Assembly (NCBI GenBank): GCA_963722075.1
Contig: CAVRJM010000001.1
Location: forward strand, 1,210,864 to 1,274,863
Direction: 5' to 3'
Source of the DNA: Candidatus Babeliales bacterium
GTDB lineage: Bacteria; Babelota; Babeliae; Babelales; JANWKD01
Length of the DNA: 64,000 nt
In this document: one piece after another, positions 3,138 through 36,264 of the stretch
Position numbering within the stretch: the first letter of the stretch is position 1
Layout of the letters: every line of letters begins with the position of its first letter
Position numbers and translations under genes: made by a program
Notes under the pieces: generated by a model
The model's input: only the letters and a program-made list of their open reading frames with translations
What the model was told of the DNA's origin: nothing
The model's database searches: none

Positions 3138-3575
3138 TTATTTTTTCAGTGCAAGCCAAGTGAAAAGAGCAATTAAGCTAGCGCCGCCGACTCCCAACCC
3201 GGTAGCAATTTGCACTTTTTTATTTTTATAAAATGGCAGTATCTGTCCGCTGTTGCCAGGAGCAACATTATTCGTGTGTGATGTAGGATTTTTTAAATAT
3301 TCTTGAGACTCGATTGATGGTGCTTCTTGATCTGCTGGTGGCGTTAACAGTTGTTGCAAGGTAGAATGATCAGCTGAATTGCTCATGGGAAATTGTGGCT
3401 GATTAATTTTTGGCGAAGGAAGTACCTCAGGTGCTGGTATATTAGTATCTACTTTGTGCCATTCAAGTGAGTCTGTTAATTTCTCGAGTTCTTTTTGTTT
3501 ATCTTGCTCCATTGCAAACATAGACAATGGTAAAAATAGAGCAAAACCGGTTAAAAATTTAGTAAGCATGTTCAT
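3138..3575 (-). CDS. secreted Pro/Gln-rich protein with C-terminal membrane anchor, hypothetical
   Basis: The ORF track gives 3138..3653. The internal ATG at 3575 (MNMLTKFLTGFALFLPLSMFA) has AAGGAG upstream and begins a signal peptide. The C-terminus GLGVGGASLIALFTWLALKK looks transmembrane. Confidence 0.55.
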   Translation of the reverse strand: MNMLTKFLTGFALFLPLSMFAMEQDKQKELEKLTDSLEWHKVDTNIPAPEVLPSPKINQPQFPMSNSADHSTLQQLLTPPADQEAPSIESQEYLKNPTSHTNNVAPGNSGQILPFYKNKKVQIATGLGVGGASLIALFTWLALKK

Positions 3576-3739
3576 AATTAATAACTCCTTTATCAAATAA
3601 TTATGATATTTTTTTCCAAGTATATGCACACAAAGCAATAAAAGGCAAGACAAGATATTATTGCTGGCTTGGATAGAGAAATGTTATACTGATTAAAAAG
3701 GGCTATTTATTGCTATTTTTATTATAAAATGGAGAGGTT

Positions 3740-4408
3740 ATGAAGTCTATTAAAATTATGTTTTTTCTTAGTTCGGTTTTTCTAATAATATCATTGCAAT
3801 CTAATGGTTTAAAAACTCCCGATGATTTCTTGTTTTTTGCCATTAAACAGTTTGGGCCAAGTTGGGATTCTTCTCCGGCTGTTAGAGAGCAATTAGAAAA
3901 AGGTGCCAACCCTAATGCTCAAAAGAAGGGCAAAACGGCGATTATGCAGGTAATTGAAGAAAAGTATGCCGGGAAAAACCGTATTAAACCATTGCTATTA
4001 TTATTAGAACGTACAAATAATGTTGACTTTGTTGCTGATAATGGGATGACTGCGCTTACCTTTGCGGCATCATTAGGTGACGATGATATGGTTAATGTAT
4101 TATTAGAAAATGGTGCTAATCGTTATAAGAAAGATGCCTACGGCATGGATTATCTCGATTATATTGTGGAAAATGAGATCTATGAAAATAAACCAAATGA
4201 GCTAAAAGCAATTAGAATAGAACGAGAAAAAAATCTTTTAAATAAAGAATTATCAGAGTTTGAGGTTATTCGTTTGCGCCATGAAATTGAAGAAGAAGAA
4301 TATGAGCGGCGCGAACAAAAAGAATGGGAAAAAGTTAGAGAGCTTGATAAAATTATACGAAAAGAATTAAGAGAACTTGAAGAAGGGTGGGAGTTGGTAG
4401 AGGAATAA
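3740..4408 (+). CDS. secreted ankyrin-repeat protein with Glu-rich coiled-coil tail (paralog 1)
   Basis: It has a signal-like N-terminus. ANK motifs include NGMTALTFAASLGDDDMVNVLLENGAN. The tail ends ...ELEEGWELVEE. The stop overlaps the photolyase ATG (TAATG). Confidence 0.8.
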   Translation: MKSIKIMFFLSSVFLIISLQSNGLKTPDDFLFFAIKQFGPSWDSSPAVREQLEKGANPNAQKKGKTAIMQVIEEKYAGKNRIKPLLLLLERTNNVDFVADNGMTALTFAASLGDDDMVNVLLENGANRYKKDAYGMDYLDYIVENEIYENKPNELKAIRIEREKNLLNKELSEFEVIRLRHEIEEEEYERREQKEWEKVRELDKIIRKELRELEEGWELVEE

Positions 4409-5766
4409 TGTATAAAAAAAGCTTATTTATCTTTCGTCGAGATTTGCGCTTAGAAGATAATATTGGCTTAAATGAAGCATTACGAAATTCAGCCCATGTT
4501 ATTCCTTGTTTCATTTTTGATCTACGCCAATTATCACCGGATAATGAATTCCGTTCATTACGTGCTATTACCTTTATGATAGAATCTTTGCTTGATTTAC
4601 AAAAACAACTTAAACACGTCAATGGAAAGCTTTATTTTTTTTCGGGTATTGCTGAAGAAGTAGTAAAGAAAATAATAAAACAAGAGTCAATAGAAGCGGT
4701 ATATTTTAATCGTGATTATACGCCATTCAGTATAAAGCGTGACGAAGCAATAAAAAAAGCGTGTATTCAAAATAATGTTGATTTTTTTATATGTGACGAT
4801 GCGCTTTTAAATCCACCTGAATCAATAAAAACGCAAAAAAATGAACCGTTTTCAAAATTTACTCCGTATTATAAAAAAGCACTACTGTATTCCGTTGATA
4901 AACCTGCTTTTTTAGCAGGTGCTCATTTCTATCACAAACCCATAAACGATACGCTTTCAGGTAATATAGACCCATTAATAGAAATTAAAAATGAGGTCAT
5001 TAAGGGCGGCTCTAAAGAAGCAGCAAAGATTTTACGATCATTAAAGAAATTTAAAAATTATGCGCATGAACATGATTTTCCTTCAATTGCTACCACCCAT
5101 CTTTCAGCGCATAATAAATTTGGCACCGTTTCAATTAGGACTGTTTATCATGCAATAAAAAAGCAACTAGGAGCAGGGCATCCGCTGCTACGTCAATTAT
5201 ATTGGCGCGACTTTTTTACCTATGTTGCCTATCATTCTCCCTTTGTTTTTGGTGAGTCATTTTATAAAAAATATGAAAAGTTGTGGTGGAGTGATAATAA
5301 AAAATTATTTACATTGTGGTGCGAAGGCAAAACAGGATTCCCTATTGTTGATGCAGGAATGAGAGAATTAAATCAAACAGGGTTTATGCATAATAGGGTG
5401 CGATTGCTAGTTGCATCATTCTTAGTAAAGGATTTGCATATAAACTGGCTCTGGGGAGAACGCTATTTTGCCCAACATTTAATTGATTATGATCCAGCCG
5501 TAAATAATGGTAATTGGCAATGGTGTGCTTCTACTGGGTGTGATGCGCAGCCCTATTTTAGAATATTTAATCCCTGGTTACAGCAAAAAAAATTTGATGC
5601 TGAATGTGTATATATTAAAAAATGGATACCTGAACTCAAAGATGTAGAGAACGCTACTATTCATACCTGGTATGCGCAAAAGCAATCGATCAACAATTAT
5701 CCATTACCAATTGTAGATCATGCTTATGAGAGCAAAATAGCTAAAAAACTCTTTAAAAACCTCTAA
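4408..5766 (+). CDS. phrB: deoxyribodipyrimidine photolyase (class I CPD photolyase/cryptochrome family)
   Basis: LFIFRRDLRLEDN at the N-terminus; the FAD-binding region reads WRDFF..., GFPIVDAGMRELNQTGFMHNRVRLLVASFLVKDL, DYDPAVNNGNWQW. The start is placed at the internal ATG 4408 rather than the track's GTG 4387. Confidence 0.9.
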   Translation: MYKKSLFIFRRDLRLEDNIGLNEALRNSAHVIPCFIFDLRQLSPDNEFRSLRAITFMIESLLDLQKQLKHVNGKLYFFSGIAEEVVKKIIKQESIEAVYFNRDYTPFSIKRDEAIKKACIQNNVDFFICDDALLNPPESIKTQKNEPFSKFTPYYKKALLYSVDKPAFLAGAHFYHKPINDTLSGNIDPLIEIKNEVIKGGSKEAAKILRSLKKFKNYAHEHDFPSIATTHLSAHNKFGTVSIRTVYHAIKKQLGAGHPLLRQLYWRDFFTYVAYHSPFVFGESFYKKYEKLWWSDNKKLFTLWCEGKTGFPIVDAGMRELNQTGFMHNRVRLLVASFLVKDLHINWLWGERYFAQHLIDYDPAVNNGNWQWCASTGCDAQPYFRIFNPWLQQKKFDAECVYIKKWIPELKDVENATIHTWYAQKQSINNYPLPIVDHAYESKIAKKLFKNL

Positions 5767-5830
5767 TATTGCAATTTGAAACTATAAAATAGTATAATTA
5801 TAGTAGCTATTTATCTGAAAAGGAGTTATT

Positions 5831-6448
5831 ATGAATAAAAAATCACCTATTATAACCTTTCTTTTATCAACTGTTTTATTTTCTTTAGAAGCAAATCATA
5901 ATATTGAAAAATATATTCCAAAGATTGCTGAGCAAATTAACGCTCTAGAGTTTTATCACCCAAAAGTTCAAGGATGGACGCCTTTTGAGCAGATAAGTTT
6001 ATTTTTACACCAAGCAGGTTTTAAACAAGAAAAACCAAACCCAAATATTCAAATTGATGGAAAAACTCTTTTGATGTATTTCATGGAAAAAGTAACAGGA
6101 AATCGTATCGAAGCGCTTAAACGTTTATTAAAAGTTTTAAATAATTATATGATGGATATAAATGTAATTGCTGATAATGGGATGACAGCACTTACATTTG
6201 CTGCCTCAAGAAATGATAATGAAATGGTAGAAGGATTAATCACGTATGGCAAAGCTGATGTTAATCAGCCTGATGCATTTGGCAAAACATATAGGGATTA
6301 TTTAATAGAAAATGAAATAAAAAGAAAAGAAAAAGTGGAAGAGGAATTGCGAAGGGAATTTGAGTTTATTCGTACCAAAGAAGAATTGGAAGAAGAGCGG
6401 GAAAAAGAATTAGAAAAAGAACTTGAAGAATGGGAAATAATTGGTTAA
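5831..6448 (+). CDS. secreted ankyrin-repeat protein with Glu-rich tail (paralog 2)
   Basis: It has a signal-like N-terminus. NGMTALTFAASRNDNEMVEGLITYGKADVN is nearly the same ANK as in 3740..4408. The tail ends ...ELEEWEIIG. Confidence 0.8.
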   Translation: MNKKSPIITFLLSTVLFSLEANHNIEKYIPKIAEQINALEFYHPKVQGWTPFEQISLFLHQAGFKQEKPNPNIQIDGKTLLMYFMEKVTGNRIEALKRLLKVLNNYMMDINVIADNGMTALTFAASRNDNEMVEGLITYGKADVNQPDAFGKTYRDYLIENEIKRKEKVEEELRREFEFIRTKEELEEEREKELEKELEEWEIIG

Positions 6449-6473
6449 CCAATTACTATAAATGGAGTGTTGT

Positions 6474-7031
6474 ATGAAAATTAATAAATTATTTTTATTG
6501 GTATCGATGAGTTTTATTGCAAATTTATTTTGTTCATATTCTTTACGCCAAGATATTCCAAACAAAGCATTATTTGATGCTATTGAAAATGCGAATGTTA
6601 ACGCGGTGAGAGTATTGTTAGCAGAAAAAAGAATTAATCCAAATATACCATATCAAGGGAAATCTGCGCTTATTAAAGCAATTACGTTATCAGATCCTAA
6701 TGCAAAAGCAATTGTGGAATTGCTCCTAAAGCATGATGCTAATCCCGATTACATTGATGATTCGGGAATGACTCCTTTAGTAGCTGCTAAATATGTTAAT
6801 AAGCCGGATATTGTTTTGCTGCTATTGCAATATGGGGCTCGGGTAACCACTGATAAAACATTACGTGAAGAGAAAAAGCCTAAAATTACCTGTCCGTATG
6901 AAAAAGGCCTTAAGAAATTAGAAAAAGAATTTTATATGGTGCCTGAAGAGCCTAAAAAAGAAGAAGAGGAATGGACGGTAATCGAAAGCCCTAAATCTGC
7001 ATGGGAGACATTAAAGCGCTGGCTCTATTAA
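6474..7031 (+). CDS. secreted ankyrin-repeat protein with acidic tail (paralog 3)
   Basis: ANK motifs include AVRVLLAEKRINPN, ELLLKHDANPD and SGMTPLVAAKYVNKPDIVLLLLQYGA. The tail reads KKEEEEWTVIESPKSAWETL. The start is moved to ATG 6474 (GGAG upstream; MKINKLFLLVSMSF looks like a signal). Confidence 0.8.
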   Translation: MKINKLFLLVSMSFIANLFCSYSLRQDIPNKALFDAIENANVNAVRVLLAEKRINPNIPYQGKSALIKAITLSDPNAKAIVELLLKHDANPDYIDDSGMTPLVAAKYVNKPDIVLLLLQYGARVTTDKTLREEKKPKITCPYEKGLKKLEKEFYMVPEEPKKEEEEWTVIESPKSAWETLKRWLY

Positions 7032-7034
7032 AAA

Positions 7035-7063
7035 TTGACAAATAAGATAAAAAATTATATGAT
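7035..7063 (+). promoter_or_regulatory. putative sigma70-like promoter of ssrA (TTGACA-N17-TATGAT)
   Basis: The hexamers were read from the sequence about 30 nt upstream of the tmRNA 5' end. AT-rich background makes chance matches likely. Confidence 0.3.
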
Positions 7064-7092: not shown

Positions 7093-7517
7093 GGGGGCGT
7101 ACTGGCTTCGACGTGGTATCGATAGGTTAAAGAGCATGCCAAGTTTTGACTGAAAACTTGTAAAAGAATTGGTCGAAATATAAATGCAAACACTGTTAAA
7201 AGTGATGTTCCTGCAGCTTTATTTGGTTCAATCCAAAATTCAGTATTTGGTGCTCAAGCAGCAGCTTGTGCTTAATTACTGAATAGTTCAGGACACTTGT
7301 TAGCATAACGTGCTTATCAGCGGTGCTAACACGTATTACAAGAGATAAGACTTTCTCGCGTAGATTACATAATTTTGTAGCGAGAAAAAACACTAAATTA
7401 TCCTTACTTTCTATCTGTGTTTTCGAGGTGAAGTAACGGTATATTCGAAAACTGAGCATGGAGTACTTTAAGCTTGACATATTGCGGACATGGGTTCGAT
7501 TCCCATCGCCTCCACCA
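7093..7517 (+). ncRNA. ssrA: tmRNA (SsrA), one-piece
   Basis: The 5' end GGGGGCGTACTGGCTTCGACG pairs with the 3' end ...GGTTCGATTCCCATCGCCTCCACCA (acceptor stem, T-arm and CCA). An internal frame from GCA 7186 to TAA 7273-7275 encodes ANTVKSDVPAALFGSIQNSVFGAQAAACA. The resume codon is uncertain. Confidence 0.85.
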
Positions 7518-7564: not shown

Positions 7565-8671
7565 CTAATAATTATGATCCAATACATCAATATATGGCTT
7601 AAACTTAAATAAACGGCCTCTTTTTTGTTGCGTTTCTTCTACTAAGATCCCATTTGCCATAAAATCAGTAATAATTTTATGAGCCGTATTATACGAAGTA
7701 TTGAGCTGCTTACTGAGTTCTTGAATATTAATAATCGGTATCCTAAAAAAAATTGATAATGCTTTTAACCGTGTACGCATGGTTGCGGTTGACTGTTTTT
7801 CTTGCGTAATTTGATCCCGCAGTGAGTGTTCTAATGAAGCGATATCTTTTGCGCGTCGGTGAGCATCAATGCTTGTTTCTTTGATAGCGGTTAAATAAAA
7901 AAGCACCCATCCTTCAAAATCGCCTTTGGTACGTACTTGATCAAGTCGTTGATAATACTCAAGTTGATTCTTTTTAAAATAATAAGAAAGATACAAAATG
8001 GGTTCATCAAGTAATTTGTTATCAATGAGCATAAGTGCGATTAATAATCTACCAATACGGCCATTGCCATCTAAAAAAGGGTGTATGGTTTCAAATTGAA
8101 CATGGGCAAGACCTGCTTTAATAAGCGGCATAGGTTCTTCGCTGTTAATATACTTTTCTAAATCGGTCATTAAATCTGGAATTAATTGTGGTGGTGGTGG
8201 AATTAGAGCGCCCACGCGTACTGGTTGTTTTCGATAATGACCTGGATTGGCTTTTTCGCCTTCTCCTTTCTCCATCAATGTTTTATGCGCAGCAAGAATT
8301 ACGCGCGAAGAAATAGGCAATCCCTCTTTTTTGACCATATCAACTGCTTTATAAATAGCGGTACAGTAGTTCATCACTAGTTGTGTATCCTTACCTGCCT
8401 TGCCGCCGCTTAATGGTTGAGTAAAAACATCTAAAAGCGTAGTGTGAATTCCTTCAATTGAAGAGGATAAAAGCGCTTCTTTAATGACATATGATTTGAT
8501 AAATCGCTTTGGATCGGGTAAACTATTAGTCATCTCGTTTAGTTTGCCCAATTGAAGCATCGCTTCTCCGTATGCATCTATGATTTTTTCATTTAGTAAT
8601 AATGGCGGTTCGTGGGGCGGTAATGAATCAGGTATAAAATAGCTATCTTCGTAATGGCCCGTTATACGCAT
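7565..8671 (-). CDS. Fic-family protein (AMPylase-type) with N-terminal inhibitory helix and C-terminal wHTH
   Basis: The Fic active-site motif HPFLDGNGRIGR is present. An inhibitory-type motif S-x-x-x-E-G (SSSIEGI) lies upstream of it. The C-terminus IQELSKQLNTSYNTAHKIITDFMANGIL is HTH-like. Confidence 0.9.
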   Translation of the reverse strand: MRITGHYEDSYFIPDSLPPHEPPLLLNEKIIDAYGEAMLQLGKLNEMTNSLPDPKRFIKSYVIKEALLSSSIEGIHTTLLDVFTQPLSGGKAGKDTQLVMNYCTAIYKAVDMVKKEGLPISSRVILAAHKTLMEKGEGEKANPGHYRKQPVRVGALIPPPPQLIPDLMTDLEKYINSEEPMPLIKAGLAHVQFETIHPFLDGNGRIGRLLIALMLIDNKLLDEPILYLSYYFKKNQLEYYQRLDQVRTKGDFEGWVLFYLTAIKETSIDAHRRAKDIASLEHSLRDQITQEKQSTATMRTRLKALSIFFRIPIINIQELSKQLNTSYNTAHKIITDFMANGILVEETQQKRGRLFKFKPYIDVLDHNY

Positions 8672-9491: not shown

Positions 9492-10617
9492 CAGGACTTA
9501 CGCATAAGTAGCACCAATATAACGATCTAATCGAGTGAACATACGATTTAGAGAAGAAGGATTTTTATTCTTAAAGGCTGTGATAGCGGCTTCTGGATTC
9601 TTATAAGAATCCAATTGAGCGATTGAATAAGCTAAGAAGACAGCGCAGATATGATCAAATTGCGTAACTATTTTTCTGGAAAAGCATTCTTGAAGGCCTA
9701 AGCTTTGCTTAGAAGTTCTGATTAATTTTTCTATTCCCCAACGATTTTTATAATTAGTAGCATGTTGCTTTGGAGTGGCTTTATACGTTGCAGCCTGGTA
9801 AACAATAGTTTCATTACCATGCTTATCAATGCGCCTTACGGCAGTAATGTAAAGGGAAAGACCATGCCAAACAATGGTTATAGTGCGAGCCATCTGCCGG
9901 CCCTTTGGGCGTATTTCTTTAATTTCATGCAACTTTCTTTTTTTCCCTTTATATTCAACTACACGGTTACTATGCATACGCACTTCGGTTGCAATATTAT
10001 TTTCTATAGCCCATTTTAAATATTCCACCGAAGCAAATGCACCATCCAAAACTGCAATAATTCTTGCATTGGGAAAAAGTTTTTGAGCTTCGATGATAAA
10101 TAGTTGTACCGTGATTATTAATGCTTGCTTGGGATTCTGATAAAACTCTTTTCCAAATGTAAAAACAGTATTGATTGGCACAGTAAATTTACCATCGGAA
10201 ATGGCACTAATAAGCAATTTATATGCGTTAATGGATCTACCAATTTTTGTGTCAAAAAACCAACACGTACCATCCATCATTTGGGAGTAAATTTTCTTAA
10301 TAGTTGTTTCATCTATGATTACTAATAGCTCTTTTTTATGAGCAAAAATTTGTTGGGCAATTCTTTTTGATTGTTCAAGGCTTTCACGTCCTGATCGCAA
10401 CATGCGATTAACAGTGTCACCACTTTTTTTGATGAGCTTACCCATATTTTCAAAACTTCTTTTTCCAATATTGGTAAGGATTGTAAGTAATGGATAAGTT
10501 GCTATATTATTAACAATGATCATTTAGGTTCTCCTTCGATTTAGTTGTTTTAGGAGAGCCTATTATTTTTTTAAAATACGTCTAGATCATATCTTTAAGT
10601 TATTTGCGCAAGTCCTG
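9492..10617 (-). mobile_element. insertion sequence (IS4 superfamily), copy IS-a
   Basis: Terminal inverted repeats are CAGGACTTACGCA (left) and TGCGCAAGTCCTG (right). They are flanked by the direct repeat TAATGA (9486-9491 and 10618-10623). A single transposase ORF lies inside. Confidence 0.75.
9498..10523 (-). CDS. DDE transposase, IS4 superfamily
   Basis: 341 aa. The signature Y-x2-R-x3-E-x6-K is present as YKNRWGIEKLIRTSK. Confidence 0.85.
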   Translation of the reverse strand: MIIVNNIATYPLLTILTNIGKRSFENMGKLIKKSGDTVNRMLRSGRESLEQSKRIAQQIFAHKKELLVIIDETTIKKIYSQMMDGTCWFFDTKIGRSINAYKLLISAISDGKFTVPINTVFTFGKEFYQNPKQALIITVQLFIIEAQKLFPNARIIAVLDGAFASVEYLKWAIENNIATEVRMHSNRVVEYKGKKRKLHEIKEIRPKGRQMARTITIVWHGLSLYITAVRRIDKHGNETIVYQAATYKATPKQHATNYKNRWGIEKLIRTSKQSLGLQECFSRKIVTQFDHICAVFLAYSIAQLDSYKNPEAAITAFKNKNPSSLNRMFTRLDRYIGATYA

Positions 10618-10688: not shown

Positions 10689-11921
10689 CTTAAGTTTGGA
10701 CAACTTCATTGTTAATAACTCCTAAAGGCATCAAACGCAATATACTTAGCCGAAATATTGTCGCGCAGGTAAAATTGAACTTGGCATATTGCTTTCCTAA
10801 GCTTGTGACGAGTATATGAATAAATCATATTAAGCAGAACATGCAATCCACTGAATTTGAGCCGCTCGCGCTTAGAAAGCACCTGATTACGTACTATTTC
10901 TCCAATCAAAATCAATAAGTTGTAAGCTATTAAGCCGATTAGAAGCAATTTATGAAGATTATTCACCGTTTTGTTCATAAGTTTTGTAAAGCCCAATTTA
11001 TCTTTTATGTCTTTGAAACTTTCTTCAATTTTCATACGTTTTTTATAGTATTTTAAACCTTCGCATGGTTCACAATTTGTAATTACATATAAAGCTTCAT
11101 GCATATTGGATTGCCATTCAGCAGCTATATTTACTTTGACATTTCCCTTATAATAAACTTCTTTCCAATTCTTCTTTGAACCTCGTGTAATAGAAATATC
11201 GATTTTACGGTACTTTTTATCAGTTATATTCACTGTATGCCTTCCAGAATTAACTTTTAAGCGTATTGCATAATGAATTTGACGTGTGGTAAAGAATTTA
11301 ATCATCTCTTCATTAGATAATTCTCGATCAGCAATAATTATCTTATTGCAAAGCAAGTCAAATAATGGCTGTAAGGCATTTTGTAGAAACTTCCATTTGC
11401 CAATATTAGTCTGATCGATTGTTGAAGAGGATATTATATCTGCGAATATCACTTTTGATCGTCCTTTGAATGGTACACTTAATGCCAAAATATTGTACCC
11501 ATGCGTTTTTCCATCTTTTAAATAACCAACATAATTAGTTTTATTAGCGCCTTTTCGAACCATCTCAGTAAAATCCAATAATATCATTTTGCTTGTTGAA
11601 TCAATAAATGTTAAAAGAGCTTCTGACAGCTGCGATACATCTAGCTTATTAAGCATCCTCGTAATCTTTTTATAATTCGTTTCATAATTGCCGGGCAACG
11701 CTGCAGAAATACTGGAAATTCTAAGTCTTCTTGTTTGCTGAAAGCTCCAAATCATTGATCCGATCAATTCTGCGAATTCTATTTTGAATATTTTTAGTGA
11801 ATTAATCATTTTTATGATACAATTTTTAGCAATCATGATTTCTCCTGATTTTGGCGTTTTTTCTTGTTTTTTAAAAAATACACCAGATCAGGAGTTTCTT
11901 CTATTTATGTCCGAACTTCAG
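10689..11921 (-). mobile_element. insertion sequence (IS4 superfamily, different family from IS-a), copy IS-b
   Basis: Imperfect 14-bp terminal inverted repeats are CTTAAGTTTGGACA and TGTCCGAACTTCAG. They are flanked by the direct repeat ATTTTA (10683-10688 and 11922-11927). Confidence 0.7.
10712..11836 (-). CDS. DDE transposase, IS4 superfamily
   Basis: 374 aa. The Y-x2-R-x3-E-x6-K signature is present as YKKRMKIEESFKDIK. Confidence 0.85.
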   Translation of the reverse strand: MIAKNCIIKMINSLKIFKIEFAELIGSMIWSFQQTRRLRISSISAALPGNYETNYKKITRMLNKLDVSQLSEALLTFIDSTSKMILLDFTEMVRKGANKTNYVGYLKDGKTHGYNILALSVPFKGRSKVIFADIISSSTIDQTNIGKWKFLQNALQPLFDLLCNKIIIADRELSNEEMIKFFTTRQIHYAIRLKVNSGRHTVNITDKKYRKIDISITRGSKKNWKEVYYKGNVKVNIAAEWQSNMHEALYVITNCEPCEGLKYYKKRMKIEESFKDIKDKLGFTKLMNKTVNNLHKLLLIGLIAYNLLILIGEIVRNQVLSKRERLKFSGLHVLLNMIYSYTRHKLRKAICQVQFYLRDNISAKYIAFDAFRSY

Positions 11922-12023: not shown

Positions 12024-15000
12024 ATGAAGAATAGAAGGCTTAAAGTCTTTATTGCCAGAATGGTGATGGTAGGTTTGCTTGTGCAACATGCTGTGCCGTT
12101 GATGGCTGCCTATGAACAAGATTCAGTAAGCGAACAACCAGCTGAAAACTTACCGATTAAGAATAAAAGAGTAAAATCAGAAGACTCTATAGATCCTCAT
12201 GCGCTCATACCAACTGCCGATACGAGTGAACAAATAGTAGTTATTGATGATGAGCAGTTAGAACATTTTATTGCATCTATAGTAAAAACCGTTGCTAGAA
12301 ATGGAACACAGGAAACATTGTCAGAAGAAATGATGATTTTTTGTGAACAATTACTAACCGGTAAAAAAGAATTTTCAGTTGGATTCTTGTGCAAAGTTGT
12401 TCCTCAATTATTAACGCTCGCAAATAAAAGCATGGAAGAAGAACGTGCCATGCGACCGAACGTTGGGTTTCAAGATGGGTCAATAGTTGGTCCATTACTT
12501 TCTTGCAACTTTGACCAAGTTCTTGCCTTGCTTCATCAAATTTTTAATTTTTTAATGCAATGTTGTGCTACCATAGAATTTGATTTAAATGGTGTGTTTA
12601 CCTTATTAAATACTGATTTTAATGGAACCTTTACCTTTCTTAATGAAATAGAAAATACCTTAACTACGTGCTGTGCTACCATAGAAAATGATTTAAATGG
12701 CGTATTTACCTTATTGAATACAGATTTTAATGGAACTTTTACTTTTCTTAATGAAATAGAGAACACCATAACTACATGCTGTGCAATTGTAGAAAATGAC
12801 TTGAATGGGGTATTTACGTTATTGAATACAGATTTTAATGGAACCTTTACCTTTCTTGATGAAATAGAAAATACCTTAACTACGTGTTGTGCAATTGTAG
12901 AAAATGATTTGAATGGAGTATTTACGGCACTTGCAGCTTTAACAGTAACGGTTACGGTTGATTTTACGGATGTATTCACCACGCTTGATGATATTAATAA
13001 TACACTAACTACCTGTTGCGCAATCGTAGAAAATGATTTAAATGGCGTATTTACCGTACTCAATACTGATTTTAATGGGGTTTTTACCGCATTAGCTGAT
13101 TTATCAGTAACGGTCACGGTTGATTTTACGGATGTATTTACCACACTTGATGAAATTAATAATACATTAACTACTTGCTGTGCGATCGTAGAAAATGATT
13201 TAAATGGTGTCTTTACCGCCCTCAATGATATAAGTACATCGTTTACTGTTGATATTACAAATATATTTACCACACTTGAGGATATTAATAATACATTAAC
13301 TACGTGTTGCGCGATTGTAGAGAATGATTTGAATGGCGTATTTACGGTATTAAATACCGACTTTAATGGTACCTTTACTATGTTAACAGATATATTTAAT
13401 ACCCTGACTACTGGTTGTGCATCAATTACACCTTGTAATCCTGTCTTTATTACTCAGGCAGATGTGGGAACGACTGGTTATACCATTACACAATCTGGAG
13501 TGTACTTTCTAAAAGAAAATATTGTATTTAGTCCAGCAACAATATCTGATGCCATTACTATAGAAGCTGATGATGTGCAATTAAATTTACAATGTTTTAT
13601 TTTATCACAAGGTAATGCGCAACCATCTGTGACTGGTATTGTTGTTGTGCCTGGGGTTAATAGCACTACTATCGAAAATGGTACCATCTCGGGATTTACT
13701 AATAATGGTATTAGTGTTGATCTGAGTGTATCGGATTTTACTCTCTTAAATACTGTTATACGTCGAAATGGCTCTGGTCTATTTTTAGATGGAGTAGTAG
13801 GATCCCCTGTTTCAAATTTTATTGTTAGAAATGTGGAATTTAATTCCAATCTTATTGGGTTGGTTATGACAAATGCTAATAATGGGATTATCCAAGGTTC
13901 AATTTTGTCACGTAACAAAACTGGTATAATGATGACTGATTGCTCTGGCAATGTTATTTCACAATGTGATATTAATCAAACGGTACAAACTGATCAGGAA
14001 AGCGCGTATGGTATAATTGCTCAAGGGGGATCTAATAATCGATTTGAAAGATGTATAATCGATGGCACTTCAACAATGGCAACCACATCAGCATTTGAGG
14101 CAACTGGTTTGTATATTGGGAGTGATGAGCAAGGCGATCTTATTGTGTGGAATCAAATAAGCAATTCAACGACATCTTCAAATGCTTTTGCCTATGGTAT
14201 CCATATGGATTACACCTTTATTGGGACTAGTACAGAAGGCATGCCGAGCATTGTAAGTACTAATACTATTATGAAGCTTGCTTGGTCACCAAGCGATAAA
14301 TACTTAGGAGTCAATTTTGGCTTTTCGGAAAAGATATACGAATTTGACCTTGCTAATGATCAATTTGTACAAGTAGCAAGCGTTACAACACCAAGTGCTA
14401 CTTCTGGATTAAGCTGGTCACCTGATGGATCATTTATAGCTTTTAGCGATCAATCGGGTGCGATAAATATCTATTCATTTGCCGGTACTACACTTAATTT
14501 TGTAACAAGTTTTGATGTTTCACCCAACATCCCACAAGCTGTCGCATGGTCACCTGATGGGCGATTTATAGCGGTAGGGACATCGGCAGGATCTTCTGGT
14601 GAAGAGATTATATTGGAATTTAATGGATCCTCATTAAGTCAAGTAGCAAGTTTTAGTTCGACCTTTGCACCATTATCAATAGCATGGGCTCCTGAGGGAG
14701 ATTTTCTTGCAGTTGGAACGACCGAAAATGTGATAGTGCTTAAATTTGTATCGGGTATTACTTTAACGCAGGTCGCTATTGCTACTCCTTTTGCACCAGT
14801 ACCTGCAGTTGATTGGGCAGTCGATGGAAGATCGATTGTTACTGCTCAAAATACAGGAACGCAAAAAGTGGTTGTATATTCATTTTCAGGAACATCGCTT
14901 ACTATCCAAGCCACGGTTAATAATTCTATAATCATTAATGATGTAAAATGGAGCCCTGACGGCAACTATGTAGTTATGGTTAGTGATACAGGGGGAGTAA

Positions 15001-15419
15001 ATGATACGCATATATTTAAATATACTGGAGTGTCCTTAGTAGATGTAGCTGATATAAATCATGGTGCTAACATAAATAGTGCTTCATGGTCACATGGCGG
15101 TGCCTACATAGCCATTGGGGGACAACCACCATCTAATGAAGCAGAACAAACGCTCAATCCATTTTTATTCCCCGTAAATATTATTCGTAATAATGAAATT
15201 TATAATATTCATGGACCAGCGCTTGCAGCAGGAATTCCAGGATATTCTACTGGCAGAGCGTTAAGTGCTTCATCTAATACCAGTTTAATTATACAAAATA
15301 CTGCATTTAATAATGATGTTAATTATGTTTTTGTTACTAATACATATCAACAATTTTTAGCAAATACACAAAGTATGTTCCCTAACTTATTATCCAACAT
15401 GTTCTTTCCACCGCTATAA
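12024..15419 (+). CDS. secreted repeat-stalk / parallel beta-helix / 7-blade beta-propeller protein (paralog 1)
   Basis: 1131 aa with a signal/anchor (FIARMVMVGLLVQHAVPLMAA). It has 7 vicinal-Cys repeats. Beta-helix-type repeats include NGTISGF..NGISV, VIRRNGSGLFL and ILSRNKTGIMM. Seven AWSPDGxxIA-type blades follow. The C-terminus is shared with paralog 2 (LIIQNTAFNNDVNYVFVTNT). Confidence 0.85.
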   Translation: MKNRRLKVFIARMVMVGLLVQHAVPLMAAYEQDSVSEQPAENLPIKNKRVKSEDSIDPHALIPTADTSEQIVVIDDEQLEHFIASIVKTVARNGTQETLSEEMMIFCEQLLTGKKEFSVGFLCKVVPQLLTLANKSMEEERAMRPNVGFQDGSIVGPLLSCNFDQVLALLHQIFNFLMQCCATIEFDLNGVFTLLNTDFNGTFTFLNEIENTLTTCCATIENDLNGVFTLLNTDFNGTFTFLNEIENTITTCCAIVENDLNGVFTLLNTDFNGTFTFLDEIENTLTTCCAIVENDLNGVFTALAALTVTVTVDFTDVFTTLDDINNTLTTCCAIVENDLNGVFTVLNTDFNGVFTALADLSVTVTVDFTDVFTTLDEINNTLTTCCAIVENDLNGVFTALNDISTSFTVDITNIFTTLEDINNTLTTCCAIVENDLNGVFTVLNTDFNGTFTMLTDIFNTLTTGCASITPCNPVFITQADVGTTGYTITQSGVYFLKENIVFSPATISDAITIEADDVQLNLQCFILSQGNAQPSVTGIVVVPGVNSTTIENGTISGFTNNGISVDLSVSDFTLLNTVIRRNGSGLFLDGVVGSPVSNFIVRNVEFNSNLIGLVMTNANNGIIQGSILSRNKTGIMMTDCSGNVISQCDINQTVQTDQESAYGIIAQGGSNNRFERCIIDGTSTMATTSAFEATGLYIGSDEQGDLIVWNQISNSTTSSNAFAYGIHMDYTFIGTSTEGMPSIVSTNTIMKLAWSPSDKYLGVNFGFSEKIYEFDLANDQFVQVASVTTPSATSGLSWSPDGSFIAFSDQSGAINIYSFAGTTLNFVTSFDVSPNIPQAVAWSPDGRFIAVGTSAGSSGEEIILEFNGSSLSQVASFSSTFAPLSIAWAPEGDFLAVGTTENVIVLKFVSGITLTQVAIATPFAPVPAVDWAVDGRSIVTAQNTGTQKVVVYSFSGTSLTIQATVNNSIIINDVKWSPDGNYVVMVSDTGGVNDTHIFKYTGVSLVDVADINHGANINSASWSHGGAYIAIGGQPPSNEAEQTLNPFLFPVNIIRNNEIYNIHGPALAAGIPGYSTGRALSASSNTSLIIQNTAFNNDVNYVFVTNTYQQFLANTQSMFPNLLSNMFFPPL
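12561..13412 (+). repeat. in-frame tandem repeat array: 7 units of 36/43/54 aa starting with Cys-Cys
   Basis: Units read CCA(T/I)(I/V)ExDLNGVFTxLNTDFNGTFTFLxEIENTLTT. Counted lengths are 36,36,36,43,54,43,36 aa (284 aa total), built from roughly 11-aa sub-repeats. Confidence 0.85.
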
Positions 15420-15581: not shown

Positions 15582-18500
15582 ATGAAGAATAGAAAGCTTA
15601 AAATCTTTATTGCCAGAATGGTAATGGTAGGTTTGCTTGTGCAACATGCTGTGCCGTTGATGGCTGCCTATGAACAAGATTCAGTAAGCGAACAACCAGC
15701 TGAAATAACCTTATCAGTTCAAGGTAAAAGAGTAAAATCAGAAGATTCTATAAATTCTAATGTACTCATACCAACTGCCGAGACGAGTGAACAAATAGTA
15801 GTTATTGATGATGAGCAGTTAGAACATTTTATTGCATCTATAGTAAAAACCGTTGCTAGAAATGGAACACAGGAAACATTGTCAGAAGAAATGATGATTT
15901 TTTGTGAACAATTACTAACCGGTAAAAAAGAATTTTCAGTTGGATTCTTGTGCAAAGTTGTTCCTCAATTATTAACGCTCGCAAATAAAAGCATGGAAGA
16001 AGAGCGTGCCATGCGACCGAACGTTGGGTTTCAAGATGGGTCAATAGTAGGCCCATTACTTTCTTGCAACTTTGACCAAGTTCTTGCCTTGCTTCATCAA
16101 ATTTTTAATTTTTTAATGCAATGTTGTGCTACCATAGAATTTGATTTAAATGGTGTGTTTACCTTATTAAATACTGATTTTAATGGAACTTTTACTTTTC
16201 TTAATGAAATAGAAAATACCTTAACTACATGCTGTGCAATTGTAGAAAATGACTTGAATGGGGTATTTACGTTATTGAATACAGATTTTAACGGAACCTT
16301 TACCTTTCTTGATGAAATAGAAAATACCTTAACTACGTGTTGTGCAATTGTAGAAAATGATTTGAATGGAGTATTTACGGCACTTGCAGCTTTAACAGTA
16401 ACGGTTACGGTTGATTTTACGGATGTATTCACCACGCTTGATGATATTAATAATACACTAACTACCTGTTGCGCAATCGTAGAAAATGATTTAAATGGCG
16501 TATTTACCGTACTCAATACTGATTTTAATGGGGTTTTTACCGCATTAGCTGATTTATCAGTAACGGTCACGGTTGATTTTACGGATGTATTTACCACACT
16601 TGATGAAATTAATAATACATTAACTACTTGTTGCGCGATTGTAGAGAATGATTTAAATGGTGTCTTTACCGCCCTCAAGGATATAGGTATAACGTTTACT
16701 GTTGATATAACAAATATATTTACCACACTTGAAGATATTAATAATACGTTAACTACGTGTTGTGCCAATATTGAATTCGATTTTAATGGCATATTTACCA
16801 CAGTTACCGATATAATTGCATCAGTATCGACTGATTTTACGCTAGCCCTTACAACGCTAATAGAAATTAATAATACCTTAACGGAATGCTGCGCAAATAT
16901 TACCAATGAATTTAATGGTACCTTTACCGTGCTCAATGATATTGAAAATACCCTTACAACATGCTGTGCAACCGTAGAAACTGATTTGAACGGGGTATTT
17001 ACGTTATTGAATACAGATTTTAACGGGACCTTTACCTTTCTTAATGAAATAGAGAATACCTTAACTACGTGCTGTGCAATTGTAGAAACTGATTTGAATG
17101 GGGTATTTACGCTATTAAATACCGATTTCAATGGTACCTTTACGGTACTTGCAAGTTTAATGCCTGCCTGCCCTAACACAGTAATTACACAATCGGCGGT
17201 AAATGCGAGTGGTGGCACCTATACCATTTCTAATCCTGGTAATTATTCTTTATCTTCAGATATTACCTCAACAGCAGCAACCATTATTGTTATTGATGCT
17301 GATCAAGTAACGTTAGATCTGTGTGGACGTTCAATTATTGGGGCCGGCGTAGATAGTGGTGATCAAATTGGAATTACCGTAGAAGCGGGCCTTTCAGATA
17401 TTGCAATCACGAATGGTGATATAACTAATATGAGTATGGACGGTATTTTTGTAAATAGCGGCGTTTCCGATTTAAGCATAAGCAATATTGCGGTAAATAA
17501 TACCGGAAGATCAGGTATTAATCTTGAAGGAAACAGTGAATCATTAATTACCGAAGTAGTTATTAATAACTGCACAATTTCTTTAACGGCAACGGGGGCT
17601 ACAGGAATTGCAGGGCTAGTTTTAAATAATTGTGATACGGTAGCGGTGCAAGGTGGAAATTTTGATCGTAATGGATCACTAACTAATGTTGCAGGAATAT
17701 TAGTTAATGCATGTAATGATTGTGTAATCGATGCAGCCACTATGAATCTTAATACCAGTACCGGGTTATTATTAGTAGATTCTCAAAATTCAGTAGTCAA
17801 TAATGTGGTAATATCAAGAAACACGGGAGCAGGTATCGATCTTTCAGGAAGCTCATTTAATACATTTAATAATTGCGCTATAACGCGTACTGTTGCAACT
17901 GCTAATAACAGTGCTTATGGTATTAGAGCATTAGGCGGTGGTAGCAATAGATTTGAAAATTGTATAATTGATGGTACCTCGACTGCCGCAACAAGTTCAG
18001 ATTTTGAAGCAACAGGTATCTTGATTGGTAGTGACGAACAAGCGGATATTATTATAAATAATCAGGTCTCTAATTCTACAGCTTCATCATCAGGATTACC
18101 ATTTGGCATTCATATGGATTATACCTTTACTGCATTAAGTAATTCAAGCCTTCCATCAATTACTATTGGCACTACTATTGATAAAGTAGCATGGTCTCCT
18201 AATGATAAATATTTGGCAGTAAGTTTTGGAACTTTGTCTACAACCATTGCAGTTTATGCATTTGATAGAGATATCTTAGATTTAGTACAAGTCGCTACAG
18301 TTGCTCTTACTAACGCATGTCAAGATTTAGCGTGGTCCCCTGATGGCACTTATTTAGCAACGGTTGAGCCAAATGGTGTTAATGGTTTATTGCGAGTGTT
18401 CTTATTTAATGGTGTAAGTCTAAATCAAATAGCAACAGCAGCAGTAGGAACCGATGGTGGGGTTCCTGAATCGGTAAGTTGGAATGCTAATGGTAGATTT

Positions 18501-34845: not shown

Positions 34846-36264
34846 ATGGGTAATACGGGAATAACTAATAACGATGGTTTATTTATACTATTTGGTGCTA
34901 CGGGTGATTTATCAAAACGACGAATTCTTCCAGCATTGTATGCATTAAGTTTTCAACATAAAATAGGAAACATTTCTATAATCGGGGTAGGGTTAGAAGA
35001 CCGCTCTTCTTTAGAAGTAATAAATGCAAGTAAGCAGTATATTGAACATCTGGATTCGGCACATTGGGCAGCTTTTGAATCTAGATTTTTTTACTATCAA
35101 ATGGATATAACAAAATCAACTGAATTTCAACAATTTAAACAATTTATTGAGCATCATGAAAAAGAGCATTCTTTTTTGGGTAATCGGTTGATATATTTAG
35201 CAGTTCATCCCAAATTTTTTGCGCCCATAACGCAACAACTAGCGCAAATAAATCTTATCCAAAAAATGGCAAACTTGTCTGATACACCTTGGTGCCGCGT
35301 TGCATATGAAAAACCGTTTGGCCTTGATAAAAAATCTGCTCATGAAATAAATGAAACCATCGCGCATTATTTGCAAGAATTTCAGATATTTCGAGTTGAT
35401 CATTATCTAGCCAAGGATATTATTGGCACTTTAGCTTTGCTACGCTTTACCAATTGCATTTTTGAGCCATTGTGGAATCATGAGCATATTGATTGGATTG
35501 AAATTGCATTAAGTGAGACAGTTGCAATGGGTGGTAGAGGTACTTTTTATGACGCCTGTGGTGCGCTTAAAGATGTAGTGCAAAATCATATGTTGCAAAT
35601 TGTTGCCTTACTTGCGATGGAAGCTCCTGAATTCTTGAGTGGTGATTACATTCGTGAACAAAAATCACTCATTTTAAAAAAAATTGAGCCTGTGGATGGT
35701 TTTCTGGCGCAATATGATGGATATAGAGTTGAAGATGGGGTAAGGCCCAATTCAACTACCGAAACCTTTGCAGCACTTAAATTATTAATTCATACACCGC
35801 GATGGAAAGATGTTCCGTTTTATTTAAGAACGGGCAAAGCATTAAACAAAAAAGAAACTATTATTACTATTCAATTTAAACCAGTTACCTGCTTATTAAG
35901 TACCAATTGCCCCAGCAATGCTGATTACCTTTCTATAAGAGTAATGCCTGAACCAGGATTTTCTATTATGTTAAATGTTAAAAAACCGGGTATGAAAATT
36001 GAAGTGATGCCAGTTGAAATGGATTTTTGTTATGAATGTAAATTTGGCGAAATACCCGAAAATGTATATCAACTAGTACTACAAGAATTATTTATAGGCG
36101 AACAAGGGATATCGGTGCGCTTTGATGAAGTTGAGCGTGCTTGGGAGATCATTGATAAGGTAAAAAAATTATCATTACCATTGTATCATTATGAAAAAGG
36201 CACTCAAGGGCCACGAGAATTGTATGAATTTGCTCAAAAAAATAAAATGAAATGGCGATTATGA
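34846..36264 (+). CDS. zwf: glucose-6-phosphate 1-dehydrogenase
   Basis: Motifs FGATGDLSKRRILPALY (NADP site), EKPFG and RVDHYLAKD (active-site RIDHYLGKE equivalent). Confidence 0.9.
   Translation: MGNTGITNNDGLFILFGATGDLSKRRILPALYALSFQHKIGNISIIGVGLEDRSSLEVINASKQYIEHLDSAHWAAFESRFFYYQMDITKSTEFQQFKQFIEHHEKEHSFLGNRLIYLAVHPKFFAPITQQLAQINLIQKMANLSDTPWCRVAYEKPFGLDKKSAHEINETIAHYLQEFQIFRVDHYLAKDIIGTLALLRFTNCIFEPLWNHEHIDWIEIALSETVAMGGRGTFYDACGALKDVVQNHMLQIVALLAMEAPEFLSGDYIREQKSLILKKIEPVDGFLAQYDGYRVEDGVRPNSTTETFAALKLLIHTPRWKDVPFYLRTGKALNKKETIITIQFKPVTCLLSTNCPSNADYLSIRVMPEPGFSIMLNVKKPGMKIEVMPVEMDFCYECKFGEIPENVYQLVLQELFIGEQGISVRFDEVERAWEIIDKVKKLSLPLYHYEKGTQGPRELYEFAQKNKMKWRL

Follow-up and report, generated by a model that had tools for sequence, protein, structure and literature searches.

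Three small ankyrin proteins encoded in a 64,000-nucleotide stretch of DNA (the window) from an uncultured protist-parasitic bacterium of the Babeliales/Dependentiae (TM6) may act as two-part adaptors, in which a Sec-exported ankyrin domain is joined to a C-terminal tail that mimics the eukaryotic LIR/AIM. On the sequence evidence set out below, the case for this function is considered about evenly balanced. The proteins would be exported by the Sec pathway and released presumably by a type II secretion system or in outer-membrane vesicles, and the ankyrin domain, with its three to four repeats, would then bind a target. The flexible acidic tail is thought to present two or three tandem acidic-[F/W]-x-x-[I/L/V] short linear motifs and most likely mimics the LIR/AIM, such that the aromatic and +3 aliphatic residues would insert into two hydrophobic pockets of a host Atg8 and the flanking Glu residues would pair with its basic surface. 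The same motifs may double as FIP200/Atg11-binding FIRs. The outcome would be either the tethering of the ankyrin-bound target to the host autophagy machinery or the blocking of an Atg8 docking site. Export to the host cytosol, Atg8 binding and the downstream effect are steps that we infer, and the LIR-like tails suggest, but do not prove, that the parasite plugs into host autophagy.

All three genes lie on the forward strand. ANK1 (3740..4408, 222 aa; delineated by its ORF, Pfam matches and an AlphaFold model) is preceded by the ribosome-binding site GGAGAGG, and its TAA stop codon shares bases with the ATG of a DNA photolyase gene (TAATG). The photolyase gene (4408..5766, +) separates ANK1 from ANK2 and is context that falls outside the motif system, although the ANK1-photolyase-ANK2 arrangement recurs in a related contig (L029/L030). 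ANK2 (5831..6448, 205 aa) has a GGAG ribosome-binding site 7 nt upstream and a promoter-like site at 5769-5798. For ANK3 (6474..7031) the longest ORF runs from 6462, the start adopted in an earlier sequence-only reading of this DNA; the most likely start is instead 6474, where the protein begins MKINK, GGAG is found 6 nt upstream and a product of 185 aa results. ANK1 shares 50% identity with ANK2 (E 9e-22) and 34% with ANK3 (E 2e-12), and by sequence the three are paralogues. The ORFs and the C-terminal sequences, which end LEEGWELVEE in ANK1, LEEWEIIG in ANK2 and KKEEEEWTVIESPKSAWETLKRWLY in ANK3, are exactly as the sequence-only reading described them, and its picture of three paralogous, secreted-type ankyrin proteins flanking a photolyase is borne out by the ORFs, the Ank_2 matches, the pairwise identities and the Sec-type N-termini.

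In ANK1 a signal peptide (~aa 1-22) and an ankyrin domain (~aa 27-147) are followed by a helical hairpin rich in Lys and Glu (aa 152-215) and then by a C-terminal motif. ANK2 likewise has a signal peptide and an ankyrin domain followed by an acidic helical tail, and in ANK3 the same two elements precede a tail with three aromatic-x-x-aliphatic motifs. The Pfam Ank_2 profile scores 37.6, 36.7 and 69.6 bits in the three proteins, respectively, where the cut-off is 27.3, and no non-ankyrin Pfam family, WH2 included, matches ANK1-3 at E values up to 0.1. The ankyrin cores are modelled by AlphaFold with a pLDDT above 90 and match DARPins over ~120 residues. Both hallmarks of an ankyrin domain, a profile match above the curated threshold and a helix-turn-helix repeat fold, are hence present.

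The wider family, which was assembled to 22 members, all of them from Babeliales-like (Dependentiae/TM6) genomes, shares the Sec-type N-terminus throughout. A Sec signal peptide is recognised by a basic n-region, an h-region of ~10-16 residues, a polar c-region and a small residue at -1. A heuristic based on the K/R count and the length of the h-region called such a signal in 22/22 members, with 1-4 K/R residues before an uncharged core of 11-20 residues that mostly ends in A or S and is then followed by N or T; besides this core, none of the 22 has a second hydrophobic segment. As read from sequence, the family has signal peptides of the Sec (type I) kind. In this respect it resembles the ankyrin proteins of cultured Dependentiae, which belong to the same phylum-level lineage, combine a Sec signal with ankyrin repeats and have a presumed role in host interaction. 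Babela massiliensis has 126 ankyrin proteins, 79 with a signal peptide, and Chromulinavorax destructans has 98, of which 78% have one; most Dependentiae ankyrin proteins bear signal peptides and are regarded as secreted effectors. The papers on these two organisms mention neither a conserved C-terminal motif nor a connection with autophagy.

Two motifs can be followed through the tails. Motif A, E-F/W-x-x-[ILV], lies 8-40 residues upstream of motif B, an acidic W-x-x-[ILV]. Motif A of ANK1 is SEFEVI (aa 172-177; 4253..4270, +), in the loop that joins the two helices of the tail, and motif B is EGWELV (aa 215-220; 4382..4399, +), followed only by EE and the stop codon. ANK1 also has an extra internal xLIR match, KEWEKV (aa 194-199; 4319..4336, +), which falls within a predicted helix and which the ANK1 orthologue P0002 does not conserve. 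The corresponding motifs of ANK2 are REFEFI (aa 175-180; 6353..6370, +) and EEWEII (aa 199-204; 6425..6442, +), the latter one residue before the stop codon. In ANK3, KEFYMV (motif A; aa 151-156; 6924..6941, +) is followed by a Pro, and the pattern [FW]xx[LV]P is kept in all ANK3-type members; EEWTVI (motif B; aa 165-170; 6966..6983, +) follows a run of four Glu residues; and SAWETL (motif C; aa 175-180; 6996..7013, +) sits in a terminal W-x-x-[ILVF]-K-x-[WY]-L-(G)-Y element common to ANK3-type members. The sequence-only reading had placed a single acidic W-x-x-[I/V] at the extreme C-terminus of each protein. The W-x-x-[ILV] motif itself stands, and for ANK1 and ANK2 so does its terminal position, but EEEEWTVI in ANK3 is 15 residues from the end, and the second motif, E-F/W-x-x-[ILV], had been overlooked; ANK3-type members have a third.

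A scan of the GTDB species-representative genomes found relatives of these proteins only in two Candidatus Babeliales MAGs, and in no other genome of that collection. The loci in the two MAGs likewise hold tandem triplets of such genes. The best explanation is that this family of small ankyrin proteins is restricted to the Babeliales (Dependentiae/TM6). Within it, an acidic [WFY]xx[ILV] is found in the last 40 aa of 22/22 members and an acidic-Trp motif in 21/22 tails, although the members are related by descent and such counts are not independent events. In most tails the core [W/F/Y]-x-x-[L/I/V] occurs two or three times at aligned positions. The Glu-Phe pair of motif A is invariant in alignments of 13 and of 15 sequences, and the Trp of motif B is invariant in the former and at least 90% conserved in the latter. 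The expectation of the sequence-only reading that orthologues should retain the motif was thus upheld for the general form in every member, whilst motif B itself is lost in P0017, the closest ANK3 orthologue, which has EEGRIEVEYP in its place and retains EFYMV upstream and AWQRF at its terminus. Motif B of ANK3 is found in P0018 and in L032 6202-6828, and is missing, as well as from P0017, from the ANK3-type genes of L002 and L003.

Such motifs could be a functionless by-product of an ancestral Glu/Lys-rich low-complexity tail. Composition-preserving shuffles of a single Glu-rich tail give an acidic-Trp motif at p ~0.1-0.3 per protein, so that one protein alone proves nothing, and the family is both small and related by descent. 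Nevertheless, F and W hold their aligned positions, even at 27-30% overall identity, in tails that are otherwise poorly conserved in sequence and length; I, L or V stands at +3 of 28 of the 30 tail Trp residues, against 5.7 expected; and the motif has been multiplied independently in ANK3-type members. A functionless origin is consequently regarded as very improbable. The background is sparse too: among the 76 ORFs of at least 80 aa in the window only ANK1-3 have the acidic-Trp motif, and the strict motif occurs in 0/105 non-family ORFs from 130 kb of Babeliales loci and in 1/245 ORFs from unrelated ankyrin loci.

The AlphaFold models place the two motifs in different settings. Motif A falls at a predicted helix end or helix-helix loop, and in ANK1 the Lys/Glu-rich hairpin that carries it in its loop has a pLDDT of 91-96. 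Motif B is predicted to lie in a disordered segment of the tail, with residues 162-181 of P0007, which include it, modelled as coil at pLDDT 46-50 and the terminal residues of ANK1 at pLDDT 46. The tail might instead act within the molecule or in oligomerisation, for instance as a pseudo-ligand that occupies the ankyrin groove and autoinhibits the protein, or as a segment that pairs with another copy; the confidently predicted hairpin speaks for this. Ankyrin grooves do take extended peptides, and residues on the ankyrin surface (NPNAQ..GKTA.M, ADNGMTALTFAA) show strong conservation along with the tail. AlphaFold, however, leaves the low-confidence coil of motif B undocked, and both the linker between the motifs and the distance to the ankyrin domain vary from 6 to ~40 residues, as is usual for linear motifs but not for a packed element. 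Such a role for the tail is held to be distinctly improbable.

As linear motifs, the tails have the attributes of a LIR/AIM, namely the core, the acidic flank, an xLIR match and a high PSSM score. According to a review of LIRs, positions -1 to -3 relative to the aromatic should be acidic or phosphorylatable; here 33 of the 44 motifs have Glu or Asp at -1, and -2 to -4 are mostly Glu. The iLIR xLIR expression matches 20/22 tails, 10 of them at least twice, and in four members a Pro at -1 of motif B prevents a match there. LIR expressions are degenerate and readily give false positives. In the iLIR benchmark, none remained at a score threshold of 17. A scoring matrix was rebuilt from the iLIR paper's 27 verified LIRs (r = 0.91 against the published scores). 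By this matrix most motif B hexapeptides score 18-23 (EEWEII of ANK2 is estimated at 21), motif A scores 14-17, or 8-11 in ANK3-type members, and scores of 18 or more are reached by 13/22 family tails versus 0/105 background tails. Most of the Trp motifs are rated as high as verified LIRs, in keeping with the LIR/AIM identity.

Individual motifs are also close to eukaryotic ones, with which the tails share the core, the acidic flank and a frequent terminal, disordered position. WTVI of ANK3 is identical to the LIR core of CCPG1, and EEWELL, from the protein encoded at L002 6988-7545, is the same as a predicted, unverified xLIR of TBC1D2B (published iLIR score 20). EEWEMV of STBD1, a verified LIR, and the C-terminal DEWEVI of TECPR2, which is predicted and high-scoring, are near-identical, and p62 DDWTHL, TBC1D25 EDWDII and the C-terminal LTWEEL of Atg19 are further comparators. 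Unlike eukaryotic LIRs, the ANK motifs, which are candidate LIRs by sequence, are bacterial, are carried on an exported ankyrin domain and occur as two or three tandem copies at conserved spacing.

A host-directed linear motif could nonetheless have a partner other than Atg8, such as the Claw of FIP200/Atg11 or another partner bound by beta-strand addition, for example SUMO or an adaptor complex; this is thought unlikely, the Claw being the likeliest of these candidates. Motifs A and B both satisfy the published FIR core consensus, the frequent Glu or Asp at -1 suits it, a stricter form with two acidic residues is matched by 14/22 tails, and many true LIRs also act as FIRs. FIRs such as CCPG1 FIR2 and the phospho-Optineurin LIR share the acidic-hydrophobic-x-x-[LIV] core with preceding acidic residues, and the Glu at -1 in the ANK motifs would render FIR-type binding independent of phosphorylation. 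A FIR, however, tolerates I, L or V at the first position, whereas the family keeps W or F almost without exception, which better suits the HP1 pocket of Atg8.

The remaining partners fit poorly. Acidic dileucine and SIM patterns are each found in 5/22 tails and the KLC W-acidic motif in 3/22, whilst clathrin-box, FFAT, DPW and COP1 motifs are each found in 0/22. The KLC W-acidic expression of ELM is [LMTAFSRI]-x-W-[DE] with a hydrophobic residue 3-5 positions on, and in 10 of the 44 family motifs the residue after Trp is Thr; this candidate was rejected. An Arp2/3-activating, WASP-type A region was discarded as well. Such a region is an acidic C-terminus with one Trp, preceded by a WH2 and a connector (C) helix; ANK1-3 give no WH2 match at E values up to 0.1, and the conserved aliphatics at +2 and +3 form no part of the A-region pattern. 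By sequence the LIR/AIM fits far better than the other classes tested, FIR apart, from which it is indistinguishable for these tails. The LIR/AIM identity put forward by the sequence-only reading is accordingly supported in part, by conservation, predicted disorder, iLIR-type scores and the comparison with seven other classes, but a FIR fits equally.

The tail might alternatively serve the bacterial side, in crossing the outer membrane (by type II secretion or vesicle loading), in surface attachment or in binding a periplasmic partner. Every member carries the motifs near its C-terminus and is a predicted Sec substrate; a type II system alone has to serve the very large secretome of Dependentiae, which makes unrecognised sorting cues plausible; and ANK3-type members finish in an aromatic-rich K-x-[WY]-L-(G)-Y. 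A general sorting tag, however, should be widespread because ~44% of C. destructans proteins carry signal peptides, and the motif is confined to the family in the 130 kb of Babeliales sequence. To our knowledge the tail matches no C-terminal sorting signal (LPXTG, PEP-CTERM, GlyGly-CTERM or the T9SS CTD), and type II substrates are not known to rely on linear signals, both of which also count against a bacterial-side role. We judge it improbable. An acidic Dot/Icm E-block secretion signal, the alternative named in the sequence-only reading, is disfavoured because the proteins have Sec signal peptides and secretion systems in the described Dependentiae are limited to type II, with two gspD copies and no type IV system. 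An E-block is a Glu-rich stretch in the last 20-30 residues of a protein that lacks a Sec signal and is encoded in a genome with Dot/Icm; the tails are Glu-rich, but all 22 members have the Sec signal, and no type IV secretion genes were found within the 64-kb window. The Sec signal takes proteins to the periplasm, and Babela grows inside a vacuole, a point against delivery to the host cytosol.

The nearest functional parallel for a LIR/AIM mimic is RavZ of Legionella pneumophila, an effector of an amoeba-dwelling intracellular bacterium with several acidic F-x-x-[L/I] LIRs, tandem (two) and C-terminal, that bind host Atg8-family proteins. The ANK tails are LIR-like by sequence, but the proteins share no sequence similarity with RavZ, which lacks a Sec signal and is a substrate of Dot/Icm (type IV). 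The LIRs of RavZ act for a cysteine-protease domain that delipidates Atg8, alongside a PI3P-binding domain, whereas the ANK proteins have a Sec signal peptide and an ankyrin domain but no catalytic domain. Working LIR motifs are known from only a few bacterial proteins, none of which has both a Sec signal and an ankyrin domain together with tandem C-terminal LIRs. A more far-reaching proposal, which we think rather unlikely, is that the ANK proteins are bacterial mimics of selective-autophagy receptors, in which the tandem LIR/FIR tail would recruit FIP200/Atg11 and Atg8 and so trigger autophagosomes on a chosen target. The ankyrin domain would select a protein or structure of the host, each of the three paralogues would bring the shared handle to a cargo of its own, and the induced autophagy would supply the parasite with host material as food or help it to build or protect its niche. 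Were this true, the phylum Dependentiae would have its first proposed effector mechanism, and LIR mimicry by Sec/type II-exported proteins its first case.

As obligate protist parasites, the Dependentiae are widespread, and exported ankyrin proteins account for a tenth or more of their genes; a short conserved motif that can be tested with peptides offers the first concrete hypothesis for one such family. Should the tails bind Atg8 tightly, they would be compact natural probes or inhibitors of protist autophagy. The giant ankyrins AnkB and AnkG are also ankyrin-repeat proteins with acidic Trp-type LIRs, of very high affinity, but they are unrelated eukaryotic proteins in which a great distance separates the LIR from the repeats and a long amphipathic helix comes after it; any resemblance to the ANK proteins is convergent.

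ANK1, ANK2 and ANK3, the paralogous small ankyrin proteins of the window, consist of an exported ankyrin domain followed by an acidic tail, predicted to be flexible, that carries two or three conserved motifs of the LIR type, the Atg8-interacting motif [W/F/Y]-x-x-[L/I/V]. Their genes form, with a DNA photolyase gene, a run of four in one orientation on the + strand: ANK1 at 3740-4408 (222 aa), the photolyase between ANK1 and ANK2 at 4408-5766, ANK2 at 5831-6448 (205 aa) and ANK3, whose longest open reading frame (ORF) spans 6462-7031. The true start of ANK3 is most likely at 6474, giving 185 aa, because a GGAG lies 6 nt before this ATG and because it is the choice of gene callers. The ribosome-binding site of ANK1 is GGAGAGG, and ANK2 has a GGAG 7 nt upstream as well as a promoter-like site at 5769-5798. 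The TAA stop of ANK1 overlaps the photolyase ATG as TAATG (4406-4410), an overlap suggestive of coupled translation of an effector-like protein and a DNA-repair enzyme. One related contig (L029/L030) has the same order as the window, namely TsaB-like, PGA_cap, a 152-aa ORFan on the opposite strand, ANK1, cryptochrome-like, photolyase, ANK2 and ANK3. The ANK triplets of both Candidatus Babeliales MAGs (L002 and L003) are without a photolyase, and for this reason the photolyase is a mere neighbour of the ANK genes and no functional partner.

Just upstream of ANK1, the ORFan at 3138-3653 (- strand; conserved as L029 9384-9842, - strand) combines an N-terminus resembling a signal sequence, a middle part of low complexity rich in Ser/Asn/Pro, and a hydrophobic C-terminal segment that ends in KK, with neither a Pfam match nor the tail motif. 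Directly 3′ of ANK3 lies a tmRNA gene (7093-7517, + strand; Rfam 149.5 bits) with an unusually long tag peptide, ANTVKSDVPAALFGSIQNSVFGAQAAACA, and near it is a sigma-70-like promoter match (11/12) at 7035-7063. The tmRNA gene is adjoined by the gene for a Fic/DOC protein (7565-8671, - strand), which comprises Fic_N and a C-terminal winged-helix region.

The paralogy proposed in the sequence-only reading holds, since all three proteins exceed the Pfam threshold for Ank_2 and their identity is 50% over 96 residues for ANK1 and ANK2 (E 9e-22), 34% for ANK1 and ANK3 (E 2e-12) and 32% for ANK2 and ANK3 (E 5e-06). With the 10 proteins (170-221 aa) returned by a homologue search with ANK1, 2 from a search with ANK3 and 7 from the neighbours in related loci, the family has 22 distinct members, whose genes mostly stand in tandem pairs or triplets. 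When one genome of each GTDB species was scanned, relatives turned up only in OY969622.1 and CAVXJH010000003.1, both Candidatus Babeliales MAGs. On the basis of these relatives and of its genome style, the window is placed in Babeliales (phylum Dependentiae/TM6). A profile of the whole-protein alignment gave no new members in a library of 1.84 billion representatives, giant multi-repeat ankyrin proteins dominating the list, and a profile of the tail only retrieved from a set of 5.8 billion proteins just a fragment of the family member P0007. Scanning metagenome contigs with family peptide patterns gave 25 loci, mostly from high-GC organisms and all encoding generic ankyrin proteins without the tail motif, which serve as a negative control only.

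All 22 members have a Sec-type N-terminus with 1-4 Lys/Arg, a core 11-20 residues long that lacks charges and then a polar stretch, mostly with A or S at its end followed by N or T; a second hydrophobic segment is present in none of them. Ankyrin proteins with signal peptides typify the Dependentiae, whose cultured representatives parasitise amoebae and flagellates obligately and have around 100 ankyrin proteins per genome, signal peptides in most of these, and a secretion repertoire of Sec and the type II secretion system only. The Sec signal peptides and this described repertoire are at odds with an E-block secretion signal, which had been put forward as an alternative role for the acidic C-terminus, and on these grounds, as far as the 64-kb window shows, an E-block or type IV signal is rejected.

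In alignments of 13 and then 15 members the tails vary in length and sequence except for a fixed Glu-Phe, invariant in both, and a fixed Trp, invariant in the first and nearly so in the second. The tail ends quoted in the sequence-only reading are correct. Motif B, in which W-x-[ILVMF]-[ILV] comes after an acidic run, ends 0-15 residues from the stop codon (EGWELV, EEWEII, EEWTVI, EDWTLI, EPWTII, EEWIMI, GEWEMI, EEWVIL). Upstream is motif A, overlooked in that reading, with the form E-[F/W]-x-x-[I/L/V], often with Pro next (SEFEVI, REFEFI, KEFYMV, EEFEEI, KEFIEI, KEFEII, KEWEFL, EEWELL). ANK3-type members have a third, terminal element, W-x-x-[ILVF]-K-x-[WY]-L-(G)-Y, and some contain three acidic Trp/Phe motifs, as in the gene at 6202-6828 of the related locus L032 (EFYFV, EDWTMI, EEWQML). 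Family tail peptides of 15-25 residues include KEFIEINPEEEDWTLIEVGG; RREFEFIRTKEE...LEEWEIIG; and KEFYMVPEEPKKEEEEWTVIESPKSAWETL. Conservation of the motif in orthologues, a check proposed in the sequence-only reading, largely holds: 21 of the 22 tails have an acidic-Trp motif. The notable exception is P0017, the nearest orthologue of ANK3 at 69% identity, in which EEEEWTVI is missing while motif A and the terminal AWQRF are kept. An aligned motif B is also missing from the ANK3-type genes of the two MAGs, their motif A being itself an acidic Trp motif.

Expressions for different motif classes were compared on the last 40 residues of the 22 tails. An acidic LIR is found in every tail, the iLIR xLIR expression in 20, two or more xLIRs in 10, and the two-acidic form of the FIR, the FIP200/Atg11 Claw-binding motif, in 14. 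Acidic dileucine and SIM (5 tails each), YxxPhi (4), KLC W-acidic (3), WxxF (1) and the clathrin box, FFAT, DPW, COP1 and GIM motifs (0 each) were rejected. As a stand-in for the iLIR server, a PSSM was rebuilt from 27 verified LIRs (Table 1 of the iLIR paper) and its scores were converted to the iLIR scale, with r = 0.91 against 87 published hexapeptide scores. Scoring of this type, proposed earlier as a check on the LIR-like assignment, comes out in its favour: motif B scores 14-23, mostly 18-23, and the iLIR benchmark had zero false positives at a threshold of 17. Motif A scores 14-17, with 8-11 in ANK3-type members. Scores of at least 18 occur in 13 of the 22 family tails, whilst in the background 3 hexapeptides in 33,951 residues reach 18, and none does so within the last 45 residues of 105 background ORFs.

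Several family hexapeptides are the same as known ones or close to them. WTVI is the core of the CCPG1 LIR, and GEWEMI and EEWEII are near the verified LIRs EEWEMV of STBD1 and EDWDII of TBC1D25. EEWELL is identical to a predicted, experimentally unverified xLIR of TBC1D2B, and the high-scoring but unverified C-terminal DEWEVI of TECPR2 is also near the family sequences. The FIR consensus (acidic, bulky hydrophobic, x, x, L/I/V, with acidic residues before it) is likewise present in the family tails; many LIRs double as FIRs, and the two are inseparable by sequence alone. That W or F is so strictly kept tilts the balance towards Atg8, and a partner in the host that is not Atg8 (chiefly FIP200/Atg11) is considered rather unlikely.

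In one tail alone the acidic-Trp motif is no more than chance (p = 0.1-0.3 by composition-preserving shuffles), but across the family it is more than chance. Within the last 40 residues, I/L/V stands at +3 of 28 of the 30 Trp (5.7 expected) and of 44 of the 58 Trp and Phe together (10.8 expected), and Glu/Asp at -1 in 33 of 44 motifs, all being counts from members of common ancestry that are non-independent. The aromatic residues remain fixed amid tails that diverge down to 27-30% overall identity, and a functionless motif is scarcely credible. None of the 105 non-family ORFs (each at least 100 aa long) in 130 kb of Babeliales sequence has the strict motif, which occurs in one of 245 ORFs of unrelated loci and, within the window, is confined to the three ANK genes. 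The absence of the motif from other ORFs, and the lack of a matching known signal, count against a sorting or anchoring signal acting on the bacterial side, which seems improbable.

With the family alignment, AlphaFold models the ankyrin cores confidently. In P0007 the pLDDT is above 90 over residues 21-150, the last helix (141-161) ends ...KEF, and residues 162-181 (IEINPEEEDWTLIEVGGKYEV) are coil of pLDDT 46-50, with the signal peptide likewise of low confidence. The longer, Lys/Glu-rich tail of ANK1 is modelled confidently as two helices (152-172 and 180-215), with motif A in the loop that joins them and a pLDDT of 46 for the final seven residues. Foldseek against the PDB matched only DARPin-type three-repeat ankyrin domains and no specific effector. 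Motif B is therefore predicted to lie within a flexible tail, like linear motifs, although for motif A, at a helix end, flexibility is less clear. A docked or folded tail, for which AlphaFold gives no support, was rejected. An intramolecular or oligomerisation element would have to accommodate both this undocked tail and a linker that varies from 6 to ~40 residues, and is improbable.

The prospect that the tail engages Atg8 and the autophagy machinery is judged to be about evenly balanced. After Sec export, the ANK proteins would leave the bacterium by type II secretion or in vesicles to reach the host cytosolic face, where the tail would add a beta-strand to Atg8, docking its aromatic residue into HP1 and the +3 residue into HP2, with its Glu residues against the basic N-terminal helices. 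Tandem motif copies could raise avidity on Atg8-coated membranes, or also engage FIP200/Atg11, and the ankyrin domain may supply a second binding site. The outcome might be the recruitment of autophagic membranes, the degradation of a host component or the blocking of the docking site to escape xenophagy. Known pathogen LIR proteins include RavZ, with tandem LIRs, and Salmonella YhjJ, with a candidate in Burkholderia. The papers found link the Dependentiae neither to autophagy nor to LIR motifs, and none reports a Sec signal combined with a small ankyrin domain and with conserved LIR/FIR-type motifs in tandem at the C-terminus; the novelty would lie in this combination within a lineage-restricted family. 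As drawn from sequence, the LIR-tail hypothesis appears attractive and cheap to test.

The window as a whole, part of a contig of 1,418,565 bp, has a G+C content of ~33% and contains a few housekeeping and pentose-phosphate genes, IS transposases, and numerous proteins with eukaryote-like repeats or domains (WD40/beta-helix, C1q, C2H2 zinc finger, TPR, macro and Fic). Three IS4-type DDE transposase genes are located at 9498-10523, 10712-11836 and 49216-50247. Two paralogues side by side at 12024-15419 and 15582-19367 (+ strand; 1131 and 1261 aa) share an unusual domain mix of eukaryote- or virus-like character, each containing a Baculo_PEP_C-like region, a right-handed beta-helix and a WD40 propeller. 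A giant ORF at 20573-31789 (+ strand; 3738 aa) has a C-terminal C1q domain (aa 3607-3723) as its sole Pfam match, and the G+C of 0.40-0.45 across it, against ~0.33 elsewhere, suggests repetitive or foreign sequence. 6-Phosphogluconate dehydrogenase is seemingly split into abutting + strand ORFs at 36252-36650 (NAD-binding) and 36650-37162 (C-terminal domain), which may reflect a frameshift, a pseudogene or a sequencing error; intact PGI and G6PD genes adjoin it. The ORF at 39983-40576 (- strand; 197 aa), with a C2H2 zinc-finger match at aa 164-184, may be a further eukaryote-like host-interaction protein. The Babeliales MAG locus L003 opens (1-2600) with repeat ORFs, nearly identical to one another, in a long array (…KVPLKPAPKIDHVCWNSELMLVQHALSALKVPLNPA…), probably a highly repetitive gene read in the wrong frame or strand.
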